Assembly: GCA_963745835.1 (NCBI GenBank)
Contig: CAVUZH010000018.1
Coordinates: forward strand, 320,001-384,000
Length of the DNA: 64,000 bases
From: an uncultured delta proteobacterium
GTDB lineage: Bacteria; Desulfobacterota; Binatia; UBA9968
Reading direction: 5' to 3'
Shown here: positions 1,586-33,415 of the stretch, piece by piece
Numbering within the stretch: position 1 is the first letter of the stretch
How the letters are laid out: every line of letters begins with the position of its first letter
Translations under genes and position numbers: made by a program
The notes under the pieces: generated by a model
Seen by the model: only the letters and a program-made list of their open reading frames with translations
Databases searched by the model: none
What the model was told of the DNA's origin: nothing

Positions 1586-3171
1586 TCCAAGCTCTCCATG
1601 ATTTCCGGCCGAAGGATCTCCACCGGAATGCTGATAACGAATTCTGCCCCACCCCTTTCCCTGTTGACTGCCCGCACACTACCGCCATGCGCCCGGACAA
1701 AACCATCGACGATCGCAAGACCGAGCCCCGTGCCGCCCGGCGCTGCGTCACCGCCGCGATAGAAGGCATCGAAAATGCGCAATAGATCGTCGTGCCGGAT
1801 TCCTTTTCCCTCGTCCACTACGGAAATAATCAGTTGTCCCTCTGACAGCTGAGCGCCGATTGTGATCTTCGTCCCAGGCGGACTGTTTGCGGCGGAGTTC
1901 AACATCAGATTGCACAAGCATTGCTCCAGAAGCGGCTGGTCAATTTTGATCATGGGCAGTCGACTATCCAAATCAAGTGTGATTTGATGGCCATTGAGCG
2001 ATTCACCCGCGAGATCGATAGCCGCTTGAATGAGCTCCTCCACATCGCACCAATCGAGCTTCGGCTGGATCACTCCGGATTCGATTCGGGTCATATCAAG
2101 CAAATTGTTGATGACGCGGTGTAGACGGCGGACGGCTACTTGGACCTCGCGCAGAGTCCTTTGCTTTTTTTCATCGCCATCGGTCTGTCGTGTTATCGCA
2201 TCGATGCCGGCCTGGACTGCGGAGAGCGGCGTTTTCAGTTCGTGGGAAACGCTCTGCAGCAGCGCATGCCTGAGGTGCTCCGATGCTTCGAGGATCTCGG
2301 CGCGCTTGAATGCTTCAACGATGTGGTTTTTTTCCAGCACCAGACCGATAAGCACCGCGAACGCTTCGAGTAAATCCCTCTCCGCTCGGTCAAAAGGTTT
2401 GCCCGCCGGCGGCCGAACCGAGAGCACGCCCATAACCGCCGTGCGGCCCTGTAACGGCAGGTGCAGCGCCTCGGCATCTGGAAAGGACCCGGTAAACTTC
2501 CCGGCCGGCACCCGGTGGCTGAAGACCCATGCGACAACGCTGTTGTCCAATTCTGAGAGATCGAATGAGCTAACTGCATGAGGTCTGGACGAGAGTGAGT
2601 GATCTTTTTGTCGTACGAAAAGCGCTGCCTTCGCGGTGAAAATCGAATCAATGAGATTAACGGCTGCCCCAAGACCCGTGTCGAGATCGGTTGCAAATGC
2701 GGCCTGCTGCGCGAGCTCATACAGAGCAGCGGTGCGACGTTCCCGCTGCCGTTCGACAATTTCGCTCCGCCGCAGACGGCTCGTCAGGTGTCCCATAGCC
2801 AAGGCGACGACAAAAAAAACTACGAACATAATCCCATCGTGGAATCTCTGAACATGCAACGTGAAGTATGGCGGTACAAAAAGGAAGTTCCACAAGGCGG
2901 CGCTGGATGCGGCCAGCGTGAGAACCGGGCCGCGGCTCAACTTCAGTCCCACCAGAACGACTAAGAGCAGGTAGAGCAGGGCGACAGTTTGATAACCCGT
3001 GAAGGGCTCAATCAACCAAGCAACCGCCGTAAATGTAAGTATGAGTAACCCGGCGAAAAAATATTCGTTAATGGTTGATGCCGACCGAACCCAGCGCCGG
3101 ATCATGTAACGTCTGGACCGGTGTTCTTGGCATCGAGCAGCCATCTCTGGGTTCGGTGAGGCTATTACCAT
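1582..3171 (-). CDS. kdpD: KdpD-like sensor kinase (4-TM, GAF, HisKA, HATPase) lacking N-terminal KdpD and Usp domains; start uncertain
   Basis: WNFLFVPPYFTL TM motif, SVSHELKTPL H-box, GGTGLGLAIV G-box. Confidence 0.85.
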   Translation of the reverse strand: MVIASPNPEMAARCQEHRSRRYMIRRWVRSASTINEYFFAGLLILTFTAVAWLIEPFTGYQTVALLYLLLVVLVGLKLSRGPVLTLAASSAALWNFLFVPPYFTLHVQRFHDGIMFVVFFVVALAMGHLTSRLRRSEIVERQRERRTAALYELAQQAAFATDLDTGLGAAVNLIDSIFTAKAALFVRQKDHSLSSRPHAVSSFDLSELDNSVVAWVFSHRVPAGKFTGSFPDAEALHLPLQGRTAVMGVLSVRPPAGKPFDRAERDLLEAFAVLIGLVLEKNHIVEAFKRAEILEASEHLRHALLQSVSHELKTPLSAVQAGIDAITRQTDGDEKKQRTLREVQVAVRRLHRVINNLLDMTRIESGVIQPKLDWCDVEELIQAAIDLAGESLNGHQITLDLDSRLPMIKIDQPLLEQCLCNLMLNSAANSPPGTKITIGAQLSEGQLIISVVDEGKGIRHDDLLRIFDAFYRGGDAAPGGTGLGLAIVDGFVRAHGGSVRAVNRERGGAEFVISIPVEILRPEIMESLE

Positions 3172-3265: not shown

Positions 3266-5251
3266 TCACGCGGCACTCTGCTGCTGGTTAAGGGAGGCAA
3301 AAACCCGGACCGGTAGGATCATCATTTCCAGCCCCTCGAACTGCAGCCGCTGCTCTAGGGTGAAAGGCGTATGGTTATGCAGCAGGCGTGTTAAGAAGTT
3401 CTCCTCTTGAAACACCAGTTTCCCCGCAAAGAACACGGGGTCGGGAAACTCCTTGGCTACAGACTTGCAAATTTTTTCCAACTCATCCATGAGGTCAATT
3501 CCCAACCCATAACGATACTCGGCGTACCAGCCCAAGCAGTTGGCAAACTCCACGAAGCTTTTCAGGTCGTCTTCTTTCATCCTGCGTAAGCTCTCTATCT
3601 CGTTAAGGCCCTTGAATCGTCCCGAGTCGATCACTGCGATTGAGACAAAAACGATATTCTTGAAGTGGTTCGGAAAAAGCCGGCCGATCCTAAGGAGCGA
3701 ATGAATCGCCAGGCCGTCGAAGTCTCTTACGATCAAAACCGCAGTGGGGCCATCCGGGTTCTTTGCCGGCATCGGCTTCATGTCTGGCTGGAATGGGATG
3801 TTCATTAGCGCGTCGTCGAGCCGCTTTAGCGCGCTACGTACGTGATCGTAATGCAATCGAACCAAATAACAGAGGACAATGAAGGCCAATGTCACCAGAA
3901 CTGTGACCCATCCGCCTTCGGCGAATTTTAGAATCACAGTGACAATGAGAATGGTGCCCGTGAACGACAAACCGAGACCATTCACAAACAGCCTTTGCAG
4001 CCAAAGCTTGTCGGTACGTCTTACTAGCCACCAGTGGCGGCACATACCCAGCCTGAGAAATGCTAAAGGTCACAAAGACATTGATCGCATACATGACCAC
4101 CAGCAGCCTTACGTCACCTTGGGTATAGGAGAGAAAAGCGAAAGAGGCGAGACCCATGAACCAGATGCCGTATCGGGTAACCAGGTTATCGCTGAGATGA
4201 GCAAAGCGATGAGGCACCCAGGAGTCGAGTCGCCATGTTCGAAAGCACTCGCGGTCCATCGATGTAACCAGCCTGTGCCGCGACGATGAGGATAGCGGCT
4301 TCAGTGACGAGCGTGACGATTACGAGAACATAGGCTAGATCCGGTGAAAAGAAACCTCCGTAAATTTTTGCAAACAGGCTGGCATTTAGAGTTTTGCCGG
4401 TTTCATGGGAGACCTGATTTAGCAGATAACAGAGCAGCAAGCCACTGGCGGTAAAGGCCAGTGATGTGGCCATATACAGCATGGTTTTTTTGCCGGTCTC
4501 GACGCGCGGTTCCCGCAAGGCCTGCAGTCCATTGCTGACAGCTTCGATACCGGTGTAGGTGCCGCCGCCAAGGCTATAGGCGTGCAGGACGATGAATAGA
4601 GTCGCCCACAAGCCTAAGCCTTGAATATCGCCGACGGACTTTTCATAGGTAGCCGATGCAACAAAAGGAACTTCCGCAGCCTTTGGTATGATGCCTAGGC
4701 CGATTGCAAAAATGTGCATCGACGACGAACAGGAGAAATATTGGCAGCAAAAAGAGAACTGACTCTTTGGTGCCGCGAAGATTAAGATAAATCAGAAAAA
4801 AGATCAGGCCGAATTCTATTGCCAGCTTAAATCCCTGAGTCGAGATGGGCAGGAAACTGAAGATCTGATCGCCCGCGCTGGCAACGGAAATCGTGATCGT
4901 CAGCATGTAATCCACGATCAAGGCAGAGCCGGAGACCAAGCCGACCTTGGGGCCCAAAAGTTTTGTCGCGACAAGATAACCGCCGCCGCCCGTCGGAAAA
5001 AGCTCGATGATGTGACTATAGCTTGCGGATATGACAAAAACGGTCAGTGCCATGAGGAGTGCCAGCGGCAGCGCAAGGAAGAAATGTTCTCCAAGAGCTA
5101 GATAGGCTTCTTCAGGGCCGTACGCTGATGAGCTTAGGCCGTCGGCGCCAAGACCCACCCAGGCAAGAAAGGCGACGAGCGATACCTGATGGAACACTTT
5201 CGGGTCCAGAGGATCCTTCGGCTTTCCGAATAGTAGACTCTTAATCGACAT
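3266..5251 (-). CDS. APC-family (KimA-like) putative K+ transporter, split by about 3 frameshifts (near 4720, 4230, 4050)
   Basis: Consecutive ORF pieces join into one transporter: GLGADGLSSSAYGPEEA, GGGGYLVATKLLG, TGIEAVSNG, YAINVFVTFSISQ, KFAEGGW. Confidence 0.8.
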
Positions 5252-6003: not shown

Positions 6004-7845
6004 CTAATTAACGATCATCAAACGACAATCATAGGGTAGCTTCTTCATCAGCCCTTTGACTACATGGCCGCGCAGCATGTGATAAAAAGCCGAGCGTCGC
6101 GACGCGCCAATGACCACCGCATCGACGTCGAGTGCTCTGGCCGCGTTGGCAATCGCCTCGGCAGCGTTATGCGAGACAGCCCAAATCGGCACGATCTCGA
6201 TCTGATTTTTACGGCCGGCTTGCAGCGCCGCCTTGAGCGTTTGCATCCCCTGCTCGTTAGGGATGTGCGGCGTGTCGCCGGCGAACAGTCCCGGCCACTC
6301 CTCGACGTAGATACAGTACAACGCCGACTCGCCCCCTCCTCTGGCCCGTCCTATCGCCTCTTTAATCAATCGGGGATTTTCATCGCGCAGCGCAACTAGC
6401 GTCGATGACGAGTATAACGGCTTTACTTCAACCGCCTCCGTAAGCGTCATAAGTCCTCGTAGTTCGTCTTCGACCAGATCTTCCGAAGCGCGATACGCCC
6501 GCGCTTGAAGCCGTTGAATAAAAGGTATCTGCACCAGCAAATCGACAAACCAGGCCCGGCGCACGCCCACCGCAATGAGCATACCGATCAAGGTAACTGC
6601 CCCGCCGAAATAGGTCGCCCGCTGTTTTTCGACGAGGTTCACTCCCCACGCGACCATAACCATGCCGGTGGTAAGGACTCCTAACCAGAATCCCCAATCA
6701 CGCCTTCCCAGATTCCAGCGGATCGAGTCCAGGCTCAGCGATGAAAATACAAACGCGCCCAATAAGCCGAAGGCATACATATCTCCCAATATTTCCAACT
6801 GACCTCCGCTGAAGAAAGATAACCAAGCACGGGTACGACAGTGGCAATGCCCACCGCGACGTGCGGTGTGTTGAAGGTTGGATTACGCATAGCCAGGATT
6901 TGGGGCAGAAAGCCGCCCTTTACGAGCGCCAGAAAAACATGATACGAGCCGATGATCGCGGTGTTGGCGGCAAAGAGCAGCAGGCTGGAGGCCGTCAAAA
7001 CGACAGCCAACTTGATGCCGTAGCCGCCCACGATCAGCCCTAGCTCGGAGATGAATCTCTCACTCTCGGTTGCCTTGAAGTGCTCCGGTAACAAACCGAT
7101 CGATAATGCCGTAAGCACCGGCGAGGTCATCACCATGGTAACGATTACCGCACCCATGGCCCAGCGTGTGGTTTGGCGCAGCGGAAGGCGCATAGTCGGA
7201 CTGAGCTGGCTAATGCTTTCCAGACCGGAGAAGGCGAGCCAGGCGGAGGAAAACCCGACGAGCAGCTCATAGCTCGACAATTCCCTGTCGGTGCCCAATC
7301 TGCTAATGACCGCCTGCCACTGTGATGCATCCATGCCGATAAACGCGATGCCGATGACCACCAGATTTACCAGGAATGAGGCACACGCCATGACCAGTGC
7401 GACAGTGGCGCTCTCGCGGATGCCGACGATGTTAAGCGCCGCCAGGACGCCCACCCCGAGCGCAGGCGAGCGCCACAATATGCGAGTCCAATACCGGAAA
7501 AATGCTGCCGATGTACTGGAATCCGGAAACGGCGGAGATCGCAGTGGTCAGGAAGTAGTCAACTGTGATGAGCATCCCGCCCAGGCATCCCCACATCGGG
7601 CCGAAAGCTTTGGTTGTGATGGTAACCACACCGCCGCCTTCCGGATTGCGCCACGAGATCTCGATGTATTTCAATGCCAGCAGAATGAAACCGCCGGTGG
7701 TTAGCAAAACAAAGAACGGCGTCGCGTCTTTGACATGGCCATAGAGGATTCCGGGCACGTAATAGACCGACGTGCCGATGTCGCAGAAGACGACTGCCCA
7801 CGCGAGAAACCAGTTGAGTTGCCGGGTATTTTTAATCGGTTGCAT
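6004..7845 (-). CDS. APC-family permease with C-terminal Usp-like domain, split by about 2 frameshifts (near 7470, 6815)
   Basis: VVFCDIGTSVYY (cf. KUP GDIGTSPLY), PEGGGVV, FSGLESISQLSP, C-terminal VDAVVIGASRRS...RGHVVKGL. Confidence 0.8.
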
Positions 7846-9264: not shown

Positions 9265-9852
9265 TTACTTGAGCTTTCTGACCTCTTGCAGGATTTGTTT
9301 ATTCGTTGGCCGGATGGTGTAGTTTGTTTCGGTAAACTTCCAACGTACTACTCCCTTGGTATCGATCACATACGTCGTTGGATGAGGCCAGCCTTTGCCA
9401 TCCGGGTTGAGAAGCCCATAGCGATCGATCACTTTGTGATCGGTATCTCGAAGCAGGGGAAAGGTTTGACTGCCATTATTCGCCGCTTGAAGTTTTTGCC
9501 GCAATTTTTTCGAGTCCTCATGGCTGTCGATGCTCACCGCCAGGATTTGCGATCTCGCGCTGTCTTGTTTATTTAGCAGGCTTTGCAGCTCGCCGAGCTG
9601 CACGACGCAATAGGGTCACCAATGGCCGCGGTAAAAAACCAACACGACATTCTTTTTGCCGCGGTAATCGGCAAGGCTGACGTTCTTACCGTCTGAATCC
9701 TCAAGCGTAAAATCCGGCGCCGGCTGCCCGACCTTGACCCGGTCGAGATCCGTCGCCGGCTGTTTTATTTCGTCCTTCGGACCGGTTTGGGCTGAGACAG
9801 CGACTTGGTTGAAGACTAACAGTAGAGCGAATACAAAGAGCAGTGGCTTCAT
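9265..9852 (-). CDS. Exported AhpC/TSA (peroxiredoxin-like) selenoprotein, UxxC motif, 195 aa with UGA read as Sec
   Basis: ORFs 9616-9852 and 9265-9603 are in one frame separated by TGA at 9616-9618, giving VLVFYRGHW-U-PYC; KVGQPAPDFTL, PHPTTYVIDTKGVVRW; N-terminal signal peptide. Confidence 0.88.
9584..9602 (-). promoter_or_regulatory. Bacterial SECIS-like hairpin
   Basis: TGCAGCTC-GGC-GAGCTGCA, perfect 8-bp stem with G-rich loop, starting 13 nt after the UGA. Confidence 0.7.
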
Positions 9853-9884
9853 CAGTTTCTCCGTAGACCTGCTAAGGGCACCGA

Positions 9885-10692
9885 TTATGTCACAGATTTA
9901 GGTCGCGGCGAAACATGCGAACGAAAAAACCGATACGAAATAGCGCGAAAAAGACCGGGCATGAAGCGCTTAAAGGCGCACATCAATGCGACTGACGTCG
10001 GCGTAATAACTTGGAAGCGCTTGTTTTCGATAACGCGAATCACGCGTCTGAGAGACAGATTCAGCAGTGATAACCAGCGATGAGGGTGACTTCGGCGAAG
10101 TTTGCGCGAACGAACGGTTGAAGCTCGTTCTCACTGGACCGGGGCAGACAAGCGAAACATCGATGCCCAGAGGCTTCAGCTCGTTATAAAGGCTTTCACT
10201 TAAACCGTTCAGGGCAAACTTTGATGCGCAGTAAGCGGCCATATTCATTGTTCCGATATGGCCGGCGACGGATGAGATATTAACGATATGGCCGCGGCCT
10301 TTGGCAATCATCGAGGGCACCACCTCACGGGTGCAGTAGACCGCGCCGAGATAATTCGTTCGCATGATCTCTTCAATAGTGTCGAGTGGCATTTCAACAA
10401 AGGGTTGGCGCATGCCGATGCCGGCATTATTTATGAGAACATCGACGGCATCGTACGCCGCGAGTACTTTCGCGACCATAGCGCGGACCTCATCCCTTGA
10501 ACCGACGTCACACCTAATCGTAATCGATCGCGGGCTAATGCGCTGAAGCTCGGCAAGAAGGGCTCCAAGCCGTTCCGCAGAGCGCCCGCAACCAATAATC
10601 ACGGCACCACGTGCTGCTAGATCCAGTGCCAGGCGTTTGCCGATACCGTCCGATGCGCCGGTAATTAAAATGATCCGATCCGTAAAGTTCAT
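9885..10692 (-). CDS. Short-chain dehydrogenase/reductase, frameshift near 10045
   Basis: TGASDGIG, NNAG, YCASK; alternative frame continues VIRVIENKRFQVITP...KSVT to TAA at 9885. Confidence 0.85.
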
Positions 10693-10764: not shown

Positions 10765-12057
10765 ATGAGCTCCAATAACGGTCATACGCCGAATGGTGGC
10801 CCGCCGCGTCGCCGTGTAGTAGTAACCGGGATCGGCGCCGTCAGCCCGAACGGCATCGGTCGTGACGCCTACTGGAGGTCTCTTCGTTGCGGCCGCAGTG
10901 GGGTCGATCTGATTTCGCAATTTCCGACTGACGAGCTCTCGTGCCAAATCGCCGGTGAAGTTAAAAATTTTCGCGCCGAGGATTATTTACCGCCGCAGGA
11001 TTTGCGGCGGGTCGGGCGAGCCGTGCCGCTGCTGCTCGCCGCCACTCGGGAAGCCTTAACCGAAGCTGGAATTGTTTGGCAGGAGTTGAGCCTGGAAGAA
11101 AGACGCTCCTGGGGTGTGATAGTCGGCAGCGGCGGCGGCACTCCGGATTTCACCGAAGAGCAATACCGCCTGTTCTTTTCCAACCAGATGCGCAAGGTGA
11201 GCGCTTACAATGTCTCGGGCTCGACGCCAGGCAACGTCTCCAGCGAGGTCTCGCTCCATTTCGACCTGCGTGGCCCGAGTCATCTCATCTCCACCGGCTG
11301 CACCAGCTCCACCGATGCGCTCGGCTATGCGTTCAATATGATTCGCTTCGGTTTGGCAGAGCACCTGGTAACGGGCGGAACTGATGCCACGATCACGCCG
11401 GGGATCATGCAGGGCTTTTGCGTGATGCGGGTGGTCTCCTGTTCGCGCAACAGCGAACCACACCGGGCTTCGCGCCCGTTCGATCGCAGCCGCGACGGGT
11501 TCGTGCTCGGCGAGGGCGCTTGGACGCTGGTTCTCGAGGAGCGCCGCAGCGCTCTGGCCCGCGGAGCACAAATTTATGCGGAAGTTCTTGGTTATGGCTC
11601 CACCTGTGATGCGTATCACCGGGTCCGGCTCGACCCGAATGGAGAAGAGCCGGCAAGGGCCATGAGCCTGGCGATCCAAGATGCCGCCATCGCCAAAGAC
11701 GAGATCGGATACGTGGCGCTGCACGGCACCTCGACGATTCTCAATGACAGAACCGAGACGGTTGCCGCCAAGCTTTGTTTTGGCCGGCGCGCTTACGAGA
11801 TCCCCATGAGCTCGGTGAAATCCATGATCGGCCACCCGCAGGGAGCTTCGGGCGCAGCCGGCGTGGTTGCCGCGATTATGGCGATGAACCACAATTTTTT
11901 GCCGCCGACCATCAACTGTGACGAGCCGGATCCGGAGTGCGACCTTAACTATATTCCAAATCGGGGCATTTCCCGGCCTGTCGACATTTCATTGTGCAAT
12001 TGCATCGGCTTCGGCTCCAAGAACTCGGCCCTGGTAATCGCTCGGGGAGAGATGTGA
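10765..12057 (+). CDS. Beta-ketoacyl synthase (FabF / type II PKS KS-alpha-like)
   Basis: VVVTGIGAVSPNG, STGCTSS (Cys), HGTST and KSMIGH (His-His), RDGFVLGEGA. Confidence 0.9.
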   Translation: MSSNNGHTPNGGPPRRRVVVTGIGAVSPNGIGRDAYWRSLRCGRSGVDLISQFPTDELSCQIAGEVKNFRAEDYLPPQDLRRVGRAVPLLLAATREALTEAGIVWQELSLEERRSWGVIVGSGGGTPDFTEEQYRLFFSNQMRKVSAYNVSGSTPGNVSSEVSLHFDLRGPSHLISTGCTSSTDALGYAFNMIRFGLAEHLVTGGTDATITPGIMQGFCVMRVVSCSRNSEPHRASRPFDRSRDGFVLGEGAWTLVLEERRSALARGAQIYAEVLGYGSTCDAYHRVRLDPNGEEPARAMSLAIQDAAIAKDEIGYVALHGTSTILNDRTETVAAKLCFGRRAYEIPMSSVKSMIGHPQGASGAAGVVAAIMAMNHNFLPPTINCDEPDPECDLNYIPNRGISRPVDISLCNCIGFGSKNSALVIARGEM

Positions 12058-12848
12058 AGCGCAGCATGGCCCCCGAGATGATGGACTCGCCGGACAACCC
12101 GCGCGAGCTCCTGGAAGATGATCTGCGCAATTTGCGAATCATCAATCGATATCTGGGAAACTATCGAGCCGTGCTTGGCGGTTTGGCGCGGCTGATCGAG
12201 GAACAAAAGTTAAAGCGGTTTTCCCTCCTCGACGTCGGCACGGGAAGCGCCGACATTCCGGCGCTAATCGCCTCATGGGCGCGGCGCCAACATCTCACCG
12301 CTCAAGTAATCGGTCTCGATCCGGAGCCGGTGACTCTACGTGCAGCGGTCAAGCAAACTCGTAATTATCCGGAGATCGGTCTGATGCGAGGTGATGGCCG
12401 GGCGCTGCCGTTGGCTTCGGATGCTGTCGATTTCGTGCTCTCATCCCAGATGCTTCATCACTTTTCCGAGGATGACATCATCAATCTGCTCAGGGGCTGG
12501 TCTCGCGTGGCGCGCCGGGCGATCATCGTTTGCGATCTGGTGCGGCATCCGGTGGCGTACCATGGAATCCGTCTAGTTACCAAAGCTTTGACGCGCAACA
12601 TTATGACCCGTACCGATGGGCCGCTCTCGGTGCAACGGGCATTTACCTTGGATGAGTGGCGCGACTTGTTCGAACGCGCCGGAATCGGTCCGTTTCGACT
12701 GTTTCCAAAATTTCCCTTTCGGCAGATAACAATTTTCTCAATGCTGGAACGAAAGTCGGCAAGCCGGCTGCGCGATGATCAAAACCATCATAGAAGTTTG
12801 GCCGGGTCATCGTCGGCTGATTGTGATGCTGGTCCGACCGGAATGTAA
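12054..12848 (+). CDS. SAM-dependent methyltransferase
   Basis: GTG start overlapping upstream TGA; EMMD..., LLDVGTGSADIP, LHHF, TDGPLSVQRAFT. Confidence 0.85.
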   Translation: MKRSMAPEMMDSPDNPRELLEDDLRNLRIINRYLGNYRAVLGGLARLIEEQKLKRFSLLDVGTGSADIPALIASWARRQHLTAQVIGLDPEPVTLRAAVKQTRNYPEIGLMRGDGRALPLASDAVDFVLSSQMLHHFSEDDIINLLRGWSRVARRAIIVCDLVRHPVAYHGIRLVTKALTRNIMTRTDGPLSVQRAFTLDEWRDLFERAGIGPFRLFPKFPFRQITIFSMLERKSASRLRDDQNHHRSLAGSSSADCDAGPTGM

Positions 12849-12892
12849 TTGGGACTCTCGGCAATCCGCCAACGATCACCAATAGAGTTGAA

Positions 12893-14054
12893 ATGGAAAA
12901 GTTCGATGCGGCTATAATCGGCGCCGGACCCGCTGGGGCTGCCGCGGCAATATCCCTGGCCGACAAAGGTTACCGGGTGGCGCTGATCGATAAGGAAAAG
13001 TTTCCACGCGGCAAGCTGTGCGGCGATTTCATCAATCCGGTTAACTGGCCGATTCTGCGCGAGCTTGACGTCGAGAACGATATATTTTCTTCCGAGCACG
13101 GCAAAGTCAGGGCGTTTCGGATCACCGCCTGTTCCGGCGAACACGCAGAAGCTCACTTGCCGGCGCAGAGCGGCGGGCCAGAATTCGGGCTGGGCCTGAG
13201 CCGTACCATCTTCGATCTCGCTTTATTGCGAAAAGCCGAACAGAAGGGCGCGGTAGTCCTGCAAGGCTGCAGAATCAAAAGCTTAGGACGTAAACTCCGG
13301 GGATGGGAGCTGTTACTTGATCATGCGCCGGGCGACGCCGAAATCCGCGCGCCTGTTGTAGTCGGAGCTGACGGAAGGAATTCATGGGTTGCACACCGGC
13401 TGGGTCTGACCAGCGCGGTCGAAACACAAGGGCGTTCGGTGGGCTTTCAGTTTAACCTCGATGCTCTCGATGCCATCAGGGGCAACATCGATATTCATCT
13501 ATTCCCGGGCGGCTACGCCGGAGTGGTTGGGCTCGGCGGCAACTCTTTCAATCTGTGTCTGGCAGTAGATAAACAAAGGCTGCCGCGTGAACGGCAAGTG
13601 GAGTTCTTGTCGGAATCGTTGCTACCGCAAAACCCCTATCTGCGAGAATTGCTCCTCAGCAGCCGCCGAGTGGGCGAGGCTCGGGCGACTTATCCGGTCT
13701 ATTTTAAACCGCGGCGCTGCGTAGCCGACGGCATTCTGTTTATTGGTGATGCCGCGCGGGTCAACGAGCCGGTGAGCGGCGAAGGGATTTACTTCGCGAT
13801 GAAAAGCGCGCTGCTGGCGGCCGAGACTATCGATGAGGCGTTTGGCGCCGGCGATTTTTCCGCAGACCCGCTTGCGCTCTTATGAACGCCGCTGCCGCCG
13901 GGAGTTCAAGCTTCGCCGGCGACTCAACATGCTCCTGCGGCATTTAGCCTATCGTCCCGCGCTGCTGACGCCGTTTGTGCGTTTTTCTGCGAAACACGGA
14001 CGGCTGCTCGACGCGCTCGTCCAGGCGATCTGCGCGCCGCAGCCGGCCCGTTGA
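12893..14054 (+). CDS. FAD-dependent oxidoreductase (geranylgeranyl-reductase-like), frameshift near 13868
   Basis: IIGAGPAG, FPRGKLCG, GADGRNS, GDAARVNEPVSGEGIYFA; tail continues in ORF ending 14054. Confidence 0.85.
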
Positions 14055-14254: not shown

Positions 14255-15927
14255 ATGATTCCTGAATTTACCGCCGAAGAACAGAAACGTCTGGTCGCTT
14301 TTTTCACGAACCTCGAGCGACCGATTTTTGGTTTGAAGCTTCCCCAAGAAGTAGCCGGGGCGCTGTTTTCGCGTTACAGCCGCTCGTCCAAGAGCTTGCG
14401 TCGCACATTCCTGGATGAGTTCCTGGGCGATCCCGAGCTCGGATTGAAAGATCTGCTCGGCGGCCAGCCGGTGGACGACGACAGCGCGGCCCTGAAAAAA
14501 GCGCGCGCCTTTTATGATCGCGTGCTGGTCGGCTATGGCGACGATTCCGTCGCGCAACTGGGCGGAGCGCACATCGCCTGTGAAAATATTTCCAATGTCG
14601 CGGCCAAGCTTATCGAAGACGCGCGCATTGGCATCGCGCCGCTGGAGAAGTCAACCCGCTATGTGCGTTTCGATCACAAGGACGCCGACGGAAATTATCT
14701 TTTTTACCGCGAGCCGAAGATCATGGCATCACGCCATGCTGCTTCTTATGTCGAAGTGATGAACCTGCTCTTCGACACCTATTCGAAGCAGATGGAGCCG
14801 ATGCTCGAGTGCGTCGCGCGTTCGCTACCCATCGAGCAAGTGGAAGCGCGCGATCCGAGCAGCGGCAAAGCGTTGCCCTACGCCGAGGCCAAGAAAGATG
14901 AACGTTTAAAGCGCTGGGCGGAGACGGCTTACCGCGCCACCGTGCGCGCCCATGCTTGTGATGTTTTACGTAGCTATCTGCCGGCTGCGACGTTGACCAA
15001 CGTTGGCATGTTCGGCGCCGGCCAGGCGTTCGAATATCTTCTGAGTAAGCTCTATTCCAATGAGTTGAGCGAAGCCAAAGCGGTTGCCGGAGCAATGCAT
15101 GGTGAGCTGAATCAATTGATACCGTCCTTTATCAAGCGCGCCCAATCCAACGAGTATCTGGCGCAGACGTCGGCATCGGCGAAAAACATCGCGGCTAAGA
15201 TCACCAAAGATTCTCCGCGGGAAACCCAGCCGGTGGTCTTGCTGGATTACGACGCGGATGCGGAAGAAAAAGTGGTGGCGGCGATTCTTTACGCGCACGC
15301 GCGCCATCCGCTACAGCAGCTACGAGAGATCGTTACCAGGATGGATCCCTCCCAGCGGCGACAGATCCTGCAGGAGCAGTTTGCCAAGCGCCGGCACCGC
15401 CGCGACAAGCTCAGCCGGGCCTTCGAGAATGCCTATTACACCTTCGACATTCTCGGCAATCTCGGACTCTATCGCGATTTGCACCGGCATAGAATTCTCA
15501 CTCAGGAGCGCCAGGACTTCACGACGGTCCACGGCTACGACACGCCGCCGGAGATTGAGGAAGCCGGTTTTAAATCCGAGTTCGAGGAATGCATGAAACG
15601 CGCGGCGGATCTGTACGAGCAAATCTTCAAAGATTTGCCATGCGAAGCGCAGTACGTGGTGCCGTTCGCCTTTAAGATTCGCTGGTACATGAAAATGAAT
15701 CTGCGCGAGGCCTTGCACATGTGCGAGCTGCGCACCATGCCCCAAGGGCATCCCGACTACCGTTTCATCTGCCAGGAGATGTGGCGCAAGATCCAGGAAG
15801 TTCATCCGGCACTGGCCGAATGCGGGAAAGTTTATCGATTGGGGGAAGTATCAGGTTGGGGCGTCTGCAGTCCGAGATGCGCACGGAGTTCAAAAGGTCG
15901 ACTTTGGAGAAGAAGAATAGACATTAA
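14255..15927 (+). CDS. thyX: FAD-dependent thymidylate synthase, double-domain type; indel(s) near 15830-15850
   Basis: RYSRS, GYGDDSVAQLG, LEKSTRY, DLHRHR, ELRTMPQGHPDYR; tail RLGRLQSE ends at 15927 in shifted frame. Confidence 0.85.
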
Positions 15928-16071
15928 ATTAAAAAGAACTTCTTATGCCGGGTTAGGTGTTTACTATAGGCGGTTCATAGAAAAACGGCCGCTCGTCGGG
16001 ATAAGATGGTAAATCTTCGGGTACGGCTCTGTTGCCAGAAATTTTGAAGCCAAATTTAGAGGAGTGAACCC

Positions 16072-23149: not shown

Positions 23150-28831
<5,682 letters not shown>

Positions 28832-32378: not shown

Positions 32379-32789
32379 TCACGACGGCATCAAACAGGGA
32401 ACCATTTGCCGGCTATGTCGGCGATAGATGCGGAAGTCGGAATCGGTGGTGAGAATGATCGGATCAGGAAGCGTCTCGGTCATGCGCACGAGGCAGGCGT
32501 CGGCGAGGCTCATGGGCACGTCCGCGTATTTCTGCAATAGCTTGAGTACTGACTCCACGTCGTTGTCCAGGTCGAAAGCGGCAATTAGAGCCCGGCGGCG
32601 AAGCAGCGCGCTGACTACAGGTGTTCCGCGCGACCCGAGGATGTGGAAAGCCTCAGATAGGACGGCTTCGCAGGTGCGCCAGGGTGGAGCATGGCCAGGC
32701 GCTTGTGTCAGCGCCCATCGGTGGTGGGCGTCGCGGCGGCTAAGTAAAGCCACTAAAAAACCTGCGTCAACGAGCACGTTTCTGGCCAT
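32379..32789 (-). CDS. PIN-domain (VapC-like) toxin
   Basis: VLVDAGFLVAL, EAVLSEAF, MSLADACLV, TTDSDFRIYR. Confidence 0.88.
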   Translation of the reverse strand: MARNVLVDAGFLVALLSRRDAHHRWALTQAPGHAPPWRTCEAVLSEAFHILGSRGTPVVSALLRRRALIAAFDLDNDVESVLKLLQKYADVPMSLADACLVRMTETLPDPIILTTDSDFRIYRRHSRQMVPCLMPS

Positions 32790-33024
32790 ACCCCGTTTCT
32801 TTCAAATAGCGTTTCTTTCGCGCGCTCAGGTCAGCAGGCAAGCCGTCCACCGAGCCGATCAGATCGGCGATAGTGTCAATCGGCGTGGACCGATGCCCTT
32901 TGGGTCGAGCAGCGCGCTGCAAGCGCTCGCGAACGATGTCGGATTTCGAACAATTGCGCCTGCGCGATTCCATCTCGATCTCGGTTACGAGCGGCTCGGG
33001 CAATCGAACGGTTAGAGTTTTCAT
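32767..33024 (-). CDS. Ribbon-helix-helix (CopG-like) antitoxin
   Basis: MKTLTVRLPE..SKSDIVRE..DLIGSVDGLPADLS..YLKETGYG; overlaps PIN gene. Confidence 0.8.
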   Translation of the reverse strand: MKTLTVRLPEPLVTEIEMESRRRNCSKSDIVRERLQRAARPKGHRSTPIDTIADLIGSVDGLPADLSARKKRYLKETGYGQKRAR

Positions 33025-33147
33025 AGCAACAGTGTATTACATCGCTGCCAGGTATGCAAGACAGAGTTGGAATAGCGAGGGGAAACGGCTCTACTGGCCG
33101 AAAGGAACGACGTTCCTGCTGCGGTGCCATCGACCCCCGCGAACTCG

Positions 33148-33415
33148 CTGGCATACCTATCCCAGAACTCCCAAGATGAACGCCCACCTCGAACGTCTTA
33201 ACCGGACCATTGAGGAGGAGTTCATTGATTACCATCAGGAGCTGCTGATCACTCCCAATGAGTTCAATCGCCAACTGATCCCGTGGCTCATCTGGTACAA
33301 CGCTGAACGACCTCATTGGTCGCTAGAGCTTAAATCTCCGGTCCAATTCCTGTTGAAAGAAAATCCCTCCTTGTGCAAAACATGCTGGCCCTATACAAAC
33401 CGTTGCAAATCATAG
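33148..33415 (+). mobile_element. Truncated IS481/IS3-like transposase C-terminus with probable right end (…TACA at 33397)
   Basis: YPRTPKMNAHLERLNRTIEEEF..WLIWYNAERPHWSL..SP integrase-core tail; N-terminus missing. Confidence 0.8.

Follow-up and report, generated by a model that had tools for sequence, protein, structure and literature searches.

Does a single in-frame TGA, placed where a thiol redox enzyme would carry the first cysteine of its active site, end a gene or encode selenocysteine (Sec)? The question arises at positions 9265-9852 of a 64,000-nucleotide stretch of DNA from an uncultured member of the Binatia (contig CAVUZH010000018.1, positions 320,001 to 384,000; assembly GCA_963745835.1), referred to here as the window. 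A model given only the letters and a list of open reading frames (ORFs) had proposed that a hidden gene for an exported, peroxiredoxin-like selenoprotein lies here, with a selenocysteine insertion sequence (SECIS) hairpin behind the TGA; this original prediction gave no strand, and we found the gene on the minus strand. We consider it highly probable that the locus forms a single gene, whose product is an exported selenoprotein with a thioredoxin/peroxiredoxin fold and Sec at its active site. At the level of sequence, the core of the proposal, an exported Sec redox enzyme concealed by a TGA, is favoured by the pairing of UGA with cysteine codons among homologues, by one protein domain that spans the TGA and by a constraint on the stem of the hairpin.

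A conserved TGA in one reading frame and the hairpin behind it

The frame opens with an ATG at 9852-9850, closes with a TAA at 9267-9265 and is interrupted by one TGA, at codon 79. The ORF listing under translation table 11 splits it, as had been remarked, in two: 9616-9852 (78 amino acids) and 9265-9603 (112 amino acids, with a GTG start). When the TGA is read through, the product contains ...VLVFYRGHW-U-PYC..., so that the TGA falls on the first position of a CxxC-type motif, exactly where it had been placed within FYRGxW-C-P-x-C; the long conserved motif is here F-Y-R-G-x-W-U-P-x-C. A single Pfam AhpC/TSA domain (PF00578) crosses the TGA (5.3e-36, residues 41-171, 123.7 bits against a cutoff of 26). 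When 17 sequences were aligned by codon, the amino acids were kept on both sides of the TGA and the codons varied freely. The codon before Q+6, at which the tail ORF begins in the window, could serve as a start in just 4 of the 17, and the tail thus has no conserved start of its own.

Relatives were collected by a scan of one genome per species, which yielded 35 loci from metagenome-assembled genomes (MAGs). The aligned codon is TGA in every one of the 19 closest (L001-L019, 46-94% identity), whose records are labelled as Binatia, Deltaproteobacteria, Blastocatellia, Acidobacteria, Acidiferrales, Chloracidobacterium, Verrucomicrobiia and Chloroflexota MAGs. The codon is TGT or TGC, within the motif WCPYC, in 11 more distant loci; four of the 35 are ordinary BCP-type peroxiredoxins; and in the 20th related locus, L020, the frame is broken and the motif lost. 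Among the 120 best protein database matches the residue at the site is Cys in 81, Trp in 16 and Ser in 1, and 22 are short C-terminal tails of ~112 residues, which start just past the site. Cysteine in 81 of the 120 proteins and in the distant loci, with TGA in the close ones, makes up the classical Sec/Cys pattern. Both the Cys/UGA pairing and the conservation of the UGA in relatives, to which the original prediction had pointed as the means of judging it, were thus borne out. The 16 Trp forms all come from contigs of ~1-1.6 kb and are plausibly an artefact, the TGA having been read under a TGA=Trp code chosen by the gene caller.

We built a tree of the Sec and Cys forms (182 proteins, site masked, FastTree, midpoint rooting). 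It places 32 of the 37 Sec-type tips in one clade, with a weak support of 0.54; outside it stand L017 and L018, L019 and two Trp-type singletons. Support in the tree is too weak for the number of Sec origins to be inferred. L017 and L018 (3001-3447 in each) are two TGA-bearing paralogues about 22 kb apart on one Blastocatellia MAG contig, each with its own hairpin, unlike that of the window. L020 (3001-3370) is a 63%-identical copy close to a contig end, and has apparently decayed.

Thirteen nucleotides after the TGA begins a hairpin of 8 perfect pairs with the 3-nt loop GGC and a folding energy (dG) of -12.5 kcal/mol; we found it at 9602-9584, with the stem, loop and spacing that had been described. 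A perfect stem of at least 8 bp with a loop of 3-8 nt occurred in 0.26% of 18,276 40-nt segments sampled from both strands of the window. Taken as a whole, the 66 nt that follow the TGA fold with an energy not significantly different from that of shuffled sequences (z = -0.12), so that only the local stem is remarkable. The published model of the bacterial SECIS (bSECIS), as worded in the Fig. 2 legend of PMC13188914, has a loop of 3-9 nt, a stem of 4-16 bp and 16-37 nt from UGA to loop; the same source adds a G within the first two loop positions and a dG of -7.5 or lower. The window hairpin agrees with each of these (loop GGC with G at loop positions 1-2, 8 bp, 21 nt from UGA to loop, -12.5), and the SECIS reading thus fits the model in the form given there. 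The same holds for 14 of 20 sequences, the other 6 falling short in dG only. In the acidobacterial loci L017-L019 the peptide at this place is a different one, yet a hairpin, its loop being GUC or GCCG, forms a few bases further on. Stems at the matching place of the Cys-form loci reach just 3-5 bp.

A sign of selection on the RNA came from synonymous sites. The 17 sequences have 108 conserved degenerate codon columns; only four of them use a single codon, and three of these are stem codons: Q+6 (CAG), L+7 (CTC) and L+10 (CTG), each with one codon in 16-17 of the 17 sequences. The chance that all three fall among the four invariant columns is small (hypergeometric P = 2e-5). The third base of the E/K codon that lies between them is G throughout. 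The Gly codon of the loop, by comparison, varies (GGC in 7, GGT in 2 and GGG in 7), and the remaining 12 conserved Leu columns use 3-6 codons each. Synonymous invariance confined to the hairpin stem in this way backs the SECIS reading as a constraint at the RNA level, and supports, with the caveats given below, the view that the hairpin is an RNA element under selection. The positions of the features discussed are collected in the table.

Table. Features of the locus in window coordinates
Feature	Position	Strand	Basis
Candidate selenoprotein coding sequence, complete, 195 codons + TAA	9265..9852	minus	read through one UGA
Proposed Sec codon: sole in-frame TGA, codon 79, first position of W-U-P-Y-C	9616..9618	minus	TGA kept in 19/19 close loci
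Cys82 codon TGC, second position of UxxC, proposed resolving residue	9607..9609	minus	invariant in 110 aligned homologues
SECIS-like hairpin tgcagctc-GGC-gagctgca, V-Q-L-G-E-L-Q codons	9584..9602	minus	8-bp perfect stem
AhpC/TSA (thioredoxin-fold) domain, residues 41-171	9340..9732	minus	Pfam; AlphaFold; Foldseek
Signal-peptide-like N-terminus, residues 1-21: MK, 12 hydrophobic residues, VSA then Q	9790..9852	minus	sequence inspection
GGAG, Shine-Dalgarno-like, 6 nt ahead of ATG	9859..9862	minus	read from sequence
Short-chain dehydrogenase, immediately upstream, same strand	9970..10692	minus	Pfam adh_short 1e-60

Predicted export, fold and proposed chemistry

The N-terminus, in which a signal peptide had been seen, has the corresponding features, a hydrophobic segment followed by VSA/Q, and its highest 12-residue Kyte-Doolittle mean is 3.0; it carries no twin-arginine motif and no lipobox Cys. 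A hydrophobic N-terminal segment was scored by script in 17 of the 19 relatives, mostly with A-x-A before Q-L-G-P-K-D. The low scorers were L016, in which a segment of this kind can be made out by eye beyond the range that was scored, and L004, whose start is ambiguous. This recurrence suggests that the protein is exported. Genes for Mla, OmpA and lytic transglycosylase proteins elsewhere in the window are consistent with a cell that has a periplasm.

We compared the read-through protein with known families and structures. No NCBIfam model reached its cutoff: the bits obtained, against those required, were 64/170 for ResA, 59/140 for BCP, 51/270 for PrxU, 47/120 for the SelL-related model (NF040769), 47/230 for TlpA, 35/272 for AhpC and 29/123 for DsbE. 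The AlphaFold model, made from the homologue alignment, has a mean predicted local distance difference test (pLDDT) of 89.9, with residues 1-30 disordered (pLDDT 56-64), and its best Foldseek match is AhpE (E 4.7e-13; template modelling score, TM, 0.87 on the target), followed by Bcp/PrxQ and ResA (E ~1e-11). By sequence, the nearest solved structures are pneumococcal Etrx1 (2yp6) and M. tuberculosis AhpE, both at ~56 bits. In the alignment to Etrx1, U79 and C82 coincide with the two Cys of WCGPC, and P158 with the Pro of the segment I-P-T-E-Y, which we take to be the cis-Pro of the family. In the alignment to AhpE, Cys82 coincides with the peroxidatic Cys, Sec79 with the conserved Thr and Arg75 with the Pro; Pro158 corresponds to AhpE residue 116, the catalytic Arg (Ala in the aligned R116A chain, 4xih). 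Across 110 homologues there is no change at F73, R75, W78, the site itself, C82 or D136. The H-P motif that contains Pro158 is invariant in a 24-sequence alignment, and Pro158 is conserved in at least 90% of the 110 sequences.

The fold, thus, looks peroxiredoxin-like and the active site thioredoxin-like (WUxxC), with Sec at the position of the attacking residue of thioredoxin-type enzymes. With the TlpA/ResA/DsbE/Etrx group (2yp6, 1st9, 1jfu) the protein shares a W-C-x-x-C at the start of helix 1 in which the first position is the nucleophile, a Pro that aligns with the one in the I-P-T loop of Etrx1, a putative export or anchor segment at the N-terminus and the Foldseek match to ResA; it differs in having Sec for Cys and in scoring far under the ResA, TlpA and DsbE cutoffs. 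AhpE and BCP/PrxQ (1xxu, 2cx3, 3hjp), in turn, are its best structural matches (TM 0.84-0.88 on the target) and have their peroxidatic Cys where it has Cys82, but the Pro, Thr and Arg of peroxiredoxins are not kept and Sec lies three residues before the peroxidatic position. The earlier description of the protein as peroxiredoxin-like, therefore, stands for the fold (AhpC/TSA, with AhpE first in Foldseek) and falls for the active site. Assignment as a peroxiredoxin proper is not supported: the PxxxT/SxxC motif and the catalytic Arg are both missing, and the NCBIfam equivalog scores lie below their cutoffs.

In the mechanism that we favour, the UGA at codon 79 would be decoded as Sec during translation, SelB with Sec-tRNA(Sec) docking on the downstream hairpin, which is made of the codons of the Q-L-G-E-L helix. 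The 195-residue precursor would leave the cytoplasm by the general secretory pathway and would probably be cut after VSA at residue 21. In the mature periplasmic protein of ~174 residues, Sec79, at the start of helix 1, would act as the attacking nucleophile and Cys82 would resolve, the two cycling between selenol/thiol and selenenylsulfide. The likelier activity would be thiol:disulfide exchange of the reductase type, as in the extracytoplasmic thioredoxins of the TlpA/ResA/Etrx type, with recharging by a putative membrane electron carrier.

Alternatively, the same selenoprotein could be a periplasmic selenol peroxidase, in which Sec79 would reduce H2O2 or organic hydroperoxides, going to the selenenic acid, Cys82 would resolve and a thiol donor would recycle the enzyme; Sec would then be used as in glutathione peroxidase (GPx), in a peroxiredoxin fold. 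Sec is a good peroxidatic residue, as in GPx and PrxU, and such an activity would agree with the peroxiredoxins at the head of the structural neighbours (AhpE, E about 5e-13; Bcp/PrxQ), with the Pfam family and with the place of Cys82 at the peroxidatic position of AhpE. However, two residues of the PxxxTxxC motif are replaced (Pro by Arg75 and Thr by Sec79), the catalytic Arg position is held by Pro158, Sec sits at the nucleophile position of thioredoxins and not at the peroxidatic position, and the three peroxiredoxin models (PrxU, BCP and AhpC) all stay under their cutoffs. We regard peroxidase activity as possible but rather unlikely.

Decoding of the UGA

Several results count against Sec insertion or export at this locus. 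The hairpin shows only weak covariation, with a single G-C pair replaced by U-A in 2 sequences and no variation in the core pairs. The structure-wide covariation score was no better than that of shuffled alignments (327 of 500 reached it), and RNAalifold did not call the hairpin on the 20-sequence alignment. Part of the conservation of the stem is driven by the protein, because the stem coincides with the conserved peptide Q-L-G-E-L. Six relatives that read QLGKL, with K for E, have a stem of only 5-6 bp, a CGGGA loop and a dG of -5.3 to -6.9. The selABCD genes that the original prediction ascribed to the host were not seen in the 64-kb window: ARAGORN found no tRNA, and no tRNA-Sec, and Pfam no SelA, SelB or SelD domain in 50 of its 70 ORFs of at least 150 amino acids. 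A domain spanning a TGA was seen in no other frame of the window among 12 of 17 frames scanned. The screen behind this number found 50 TGA frames and kept 17 after those under longer ORFs in other frames had been dropped; from the 17 we excluded the gene described here and four picked by eye, known genes with extensions of 30-37 codons or, in one case, a frame running into the antisense of this gene. A redox partner of the CcdA/DsbD type was not found in 44 neighbouring ORFs at 17 loci, and the case for export comes from inspection of the N-terminus. Separately, the window gave no Rfam match at gathering thresholds.

If Sec were not inserted, an altered code or near-cognate suppression might place one of the standard residues, Trp or Cys, at the UGA; 16 homologues appear with W there in the database, and no Sec machinery was seen in the window. 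This is, nevertheless, very improbable. TGA ends 16 of the 31 Pfam-supported ORFs of the window, whose GC content is 55%; it is, therefore, an ordinary stop elsewhere in the window, and a TGA=Trp code is not in use. Redox function would be lost with Trp where the invariant CxxC has its nucleophile, and the short contigs from which all the W proteins come fit the artefact of code choice suggested above. The constraint on the hairpin, moreover, is a prediction of SelB-dependent decoding.

That the TGA is a real stop, in a pseudogene or in a split gene for an exported 78-residue peptide and a separate 112-residue tail, is scarcely credible: table 11 does give two ORFs with a GTG start for the tail in the window, 112-residue tails are common in public databases (22 of the 120 best matches) and no Sec machinery was seen within the window, but all 19 loci, as far as 46% identity, have this TGA at the same codon, both halves are under purifying selection, the start of the tail is not conserved (GTG in 4 of 17), the tail alone lacks the redox motif, and true decay looks like L020, with its broken frame and lost motif.

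Known relatives and genomic setting

The selenoprotein reading places the gene within a family already predicted with high confidence, the Prx-like thiol:disulfide oxidoreductases, defined in PMC9312934 and PMC13188914 by PF00578 with UxxC or UxxU (example, WP_010940744.1; the prediction itself also in PMC1794560). The family occurs in Deltaproteobacteria-type lineages according to PMC1794560, and the GOS selenoproteome, an ocean survey, counted 225 UxxC selenoproteins of a group called "Prx-like 1" (PMC2398784). Selenoproteins exposed outside the cytoplasm have likewise been described in a preprint (bioRxiv 10.1101/2022.07.06.499078). Since PF00578 and UxxC match the family definition, we assign the gene to this family by definition. 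It has in common with the family the domain, Sec as the first residue of UxxC, many Cys homologues, a prediction made from sequence only and an unassigned physiological substrate; it is unlike it in the origin of its clade from Binatia/Acidobacteriota-type MAGs, in its predicted export signal and in its longer F-Y-R-G-x-W-U-P-x-C motif. The gene is, thus, most likely a new, exported and mis-annotated member of a known selenoprotein family.

Two other groups of selenoproteins are more remote. Eukaryotic SelL (UxxU) and the SelL-related model resemble the window protein in their Prx-like fold and in a CxxC-type motif that takes Sec, whereas the window protein has one Sec, not two, and scores 47 bits against 120. 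PrxU of Eubacterium acidaminophilum (NF040737), which is reportedly cytoplasmic, is also a selenoprotein with the AhpC/TSA fold. In PrxU, however, Sec replaces the peroxidatic Cys, in a TxxU motif as described in PMC13188914, unlike the UxxC of the window protein, which reaches 51 bits against 270 with the PrxU model.

Public databases list the clade in two forms, tails of 112 residues named "redoxin domain-containing" and full-length proteins that show W at the site, so that its redox centre is invisible to database users. Our literature search returned no report on selenocysteine in Binatia/Binatota, the matches for Binatota being judged unrelated by their titles and the beginnings of their abstracts. 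If the reading as an exported selenoprotein is true, soil bacteria of the Binatia type spend selenium on an exported redoxin. A wider interpretation, which we hold to be doubtful, would make the Binatia and some Acidobacteriota a soil lineage of selenocysteine users, with a selenoenzyme, exported by the Sec pathway and of biochemically uncharacterised catalytic type, serving as a periplasmic peroxide or disulfide scavenger whose Sec takes the thioredoxin nucleophile position in a peroxiredoxin fold, and with a minimal SECIS of 5-8 bp that doubles as the code for the first active-site helix. General knowledge of selenoproteins is unchanged by the finding; as to method, the locus offers a clean case of a SECIS detectable by synonymous-site invariance without covariation.

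The short-chain dehydrogenase upstream of the gene is present also in L001, L008, L009 and L014 (4 of the 17 loci scanned), and blastn shows L002 and L003 to be colinear with the window. Identity to the window is 91% over 6.6 kb for L001 and 92% for L003, which places the source of the window among Binatia-type bacteria. The selenoprotein gene faces a gene for an NMT1-type binding protein, and its other neighbours vary across loci; genes for cytochrome maturation or copper chaperones were absent from the window ORFs and neighbouring ORFs scanned. Divergent from the dehydrogenase/selenoprotein pair, a beta-ketoacyl synthase, a methyltransferase and an FAD-dependent oxidoreductase stand in a row at 10765-13885 on the plus strand, and the synthase stays beside the pair in L001-L004 and L008. 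In L012 a MerF-like membrane protein (2038-2334, plus strand) adjoins the gene. A gene for an extracytoplasmic function (ECF) sigma factor lies downstream in L012, L013 and L017, with a zf-HC2 anti-sigma-type gene only in L012 and L013; these neighbours hint at stress-regulated expression. A peptide chain release factor gene (PCRF, RF-1; 3682-4461, minus strand), convergent with the selenoprotein gene, follows directly after it in L010, probably by coincidence.

Elsewhere in the window we noted several unusual ORFs. One of 1893 residues (23150-28831, plus strand) carries UvrA interaction and DNA-binding domains and several ABC ATPase segments; it is, we believe, about twice the usual length of UvrA and may be duplicated or fused. 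Another, of 585 residues (14255-16012, plus strand), has two matched stretches of the ThyX (Thy1) domain and is presumably much longer than the usual ThyX. At 32428-33415 (plus strand) two overlapping ORFs, the second with the integrase core rve_3, look like an IS3-type transposase made by frameshifting. Finally, at 6004-7478 (minus strand) a 247-residue amino-acid permease fragment, matching profile positions 127-338 only, overlaps the ORF after it, in which a universal stress protein domain was matched; a frameshift or a gene fusion may explain the arrangement.

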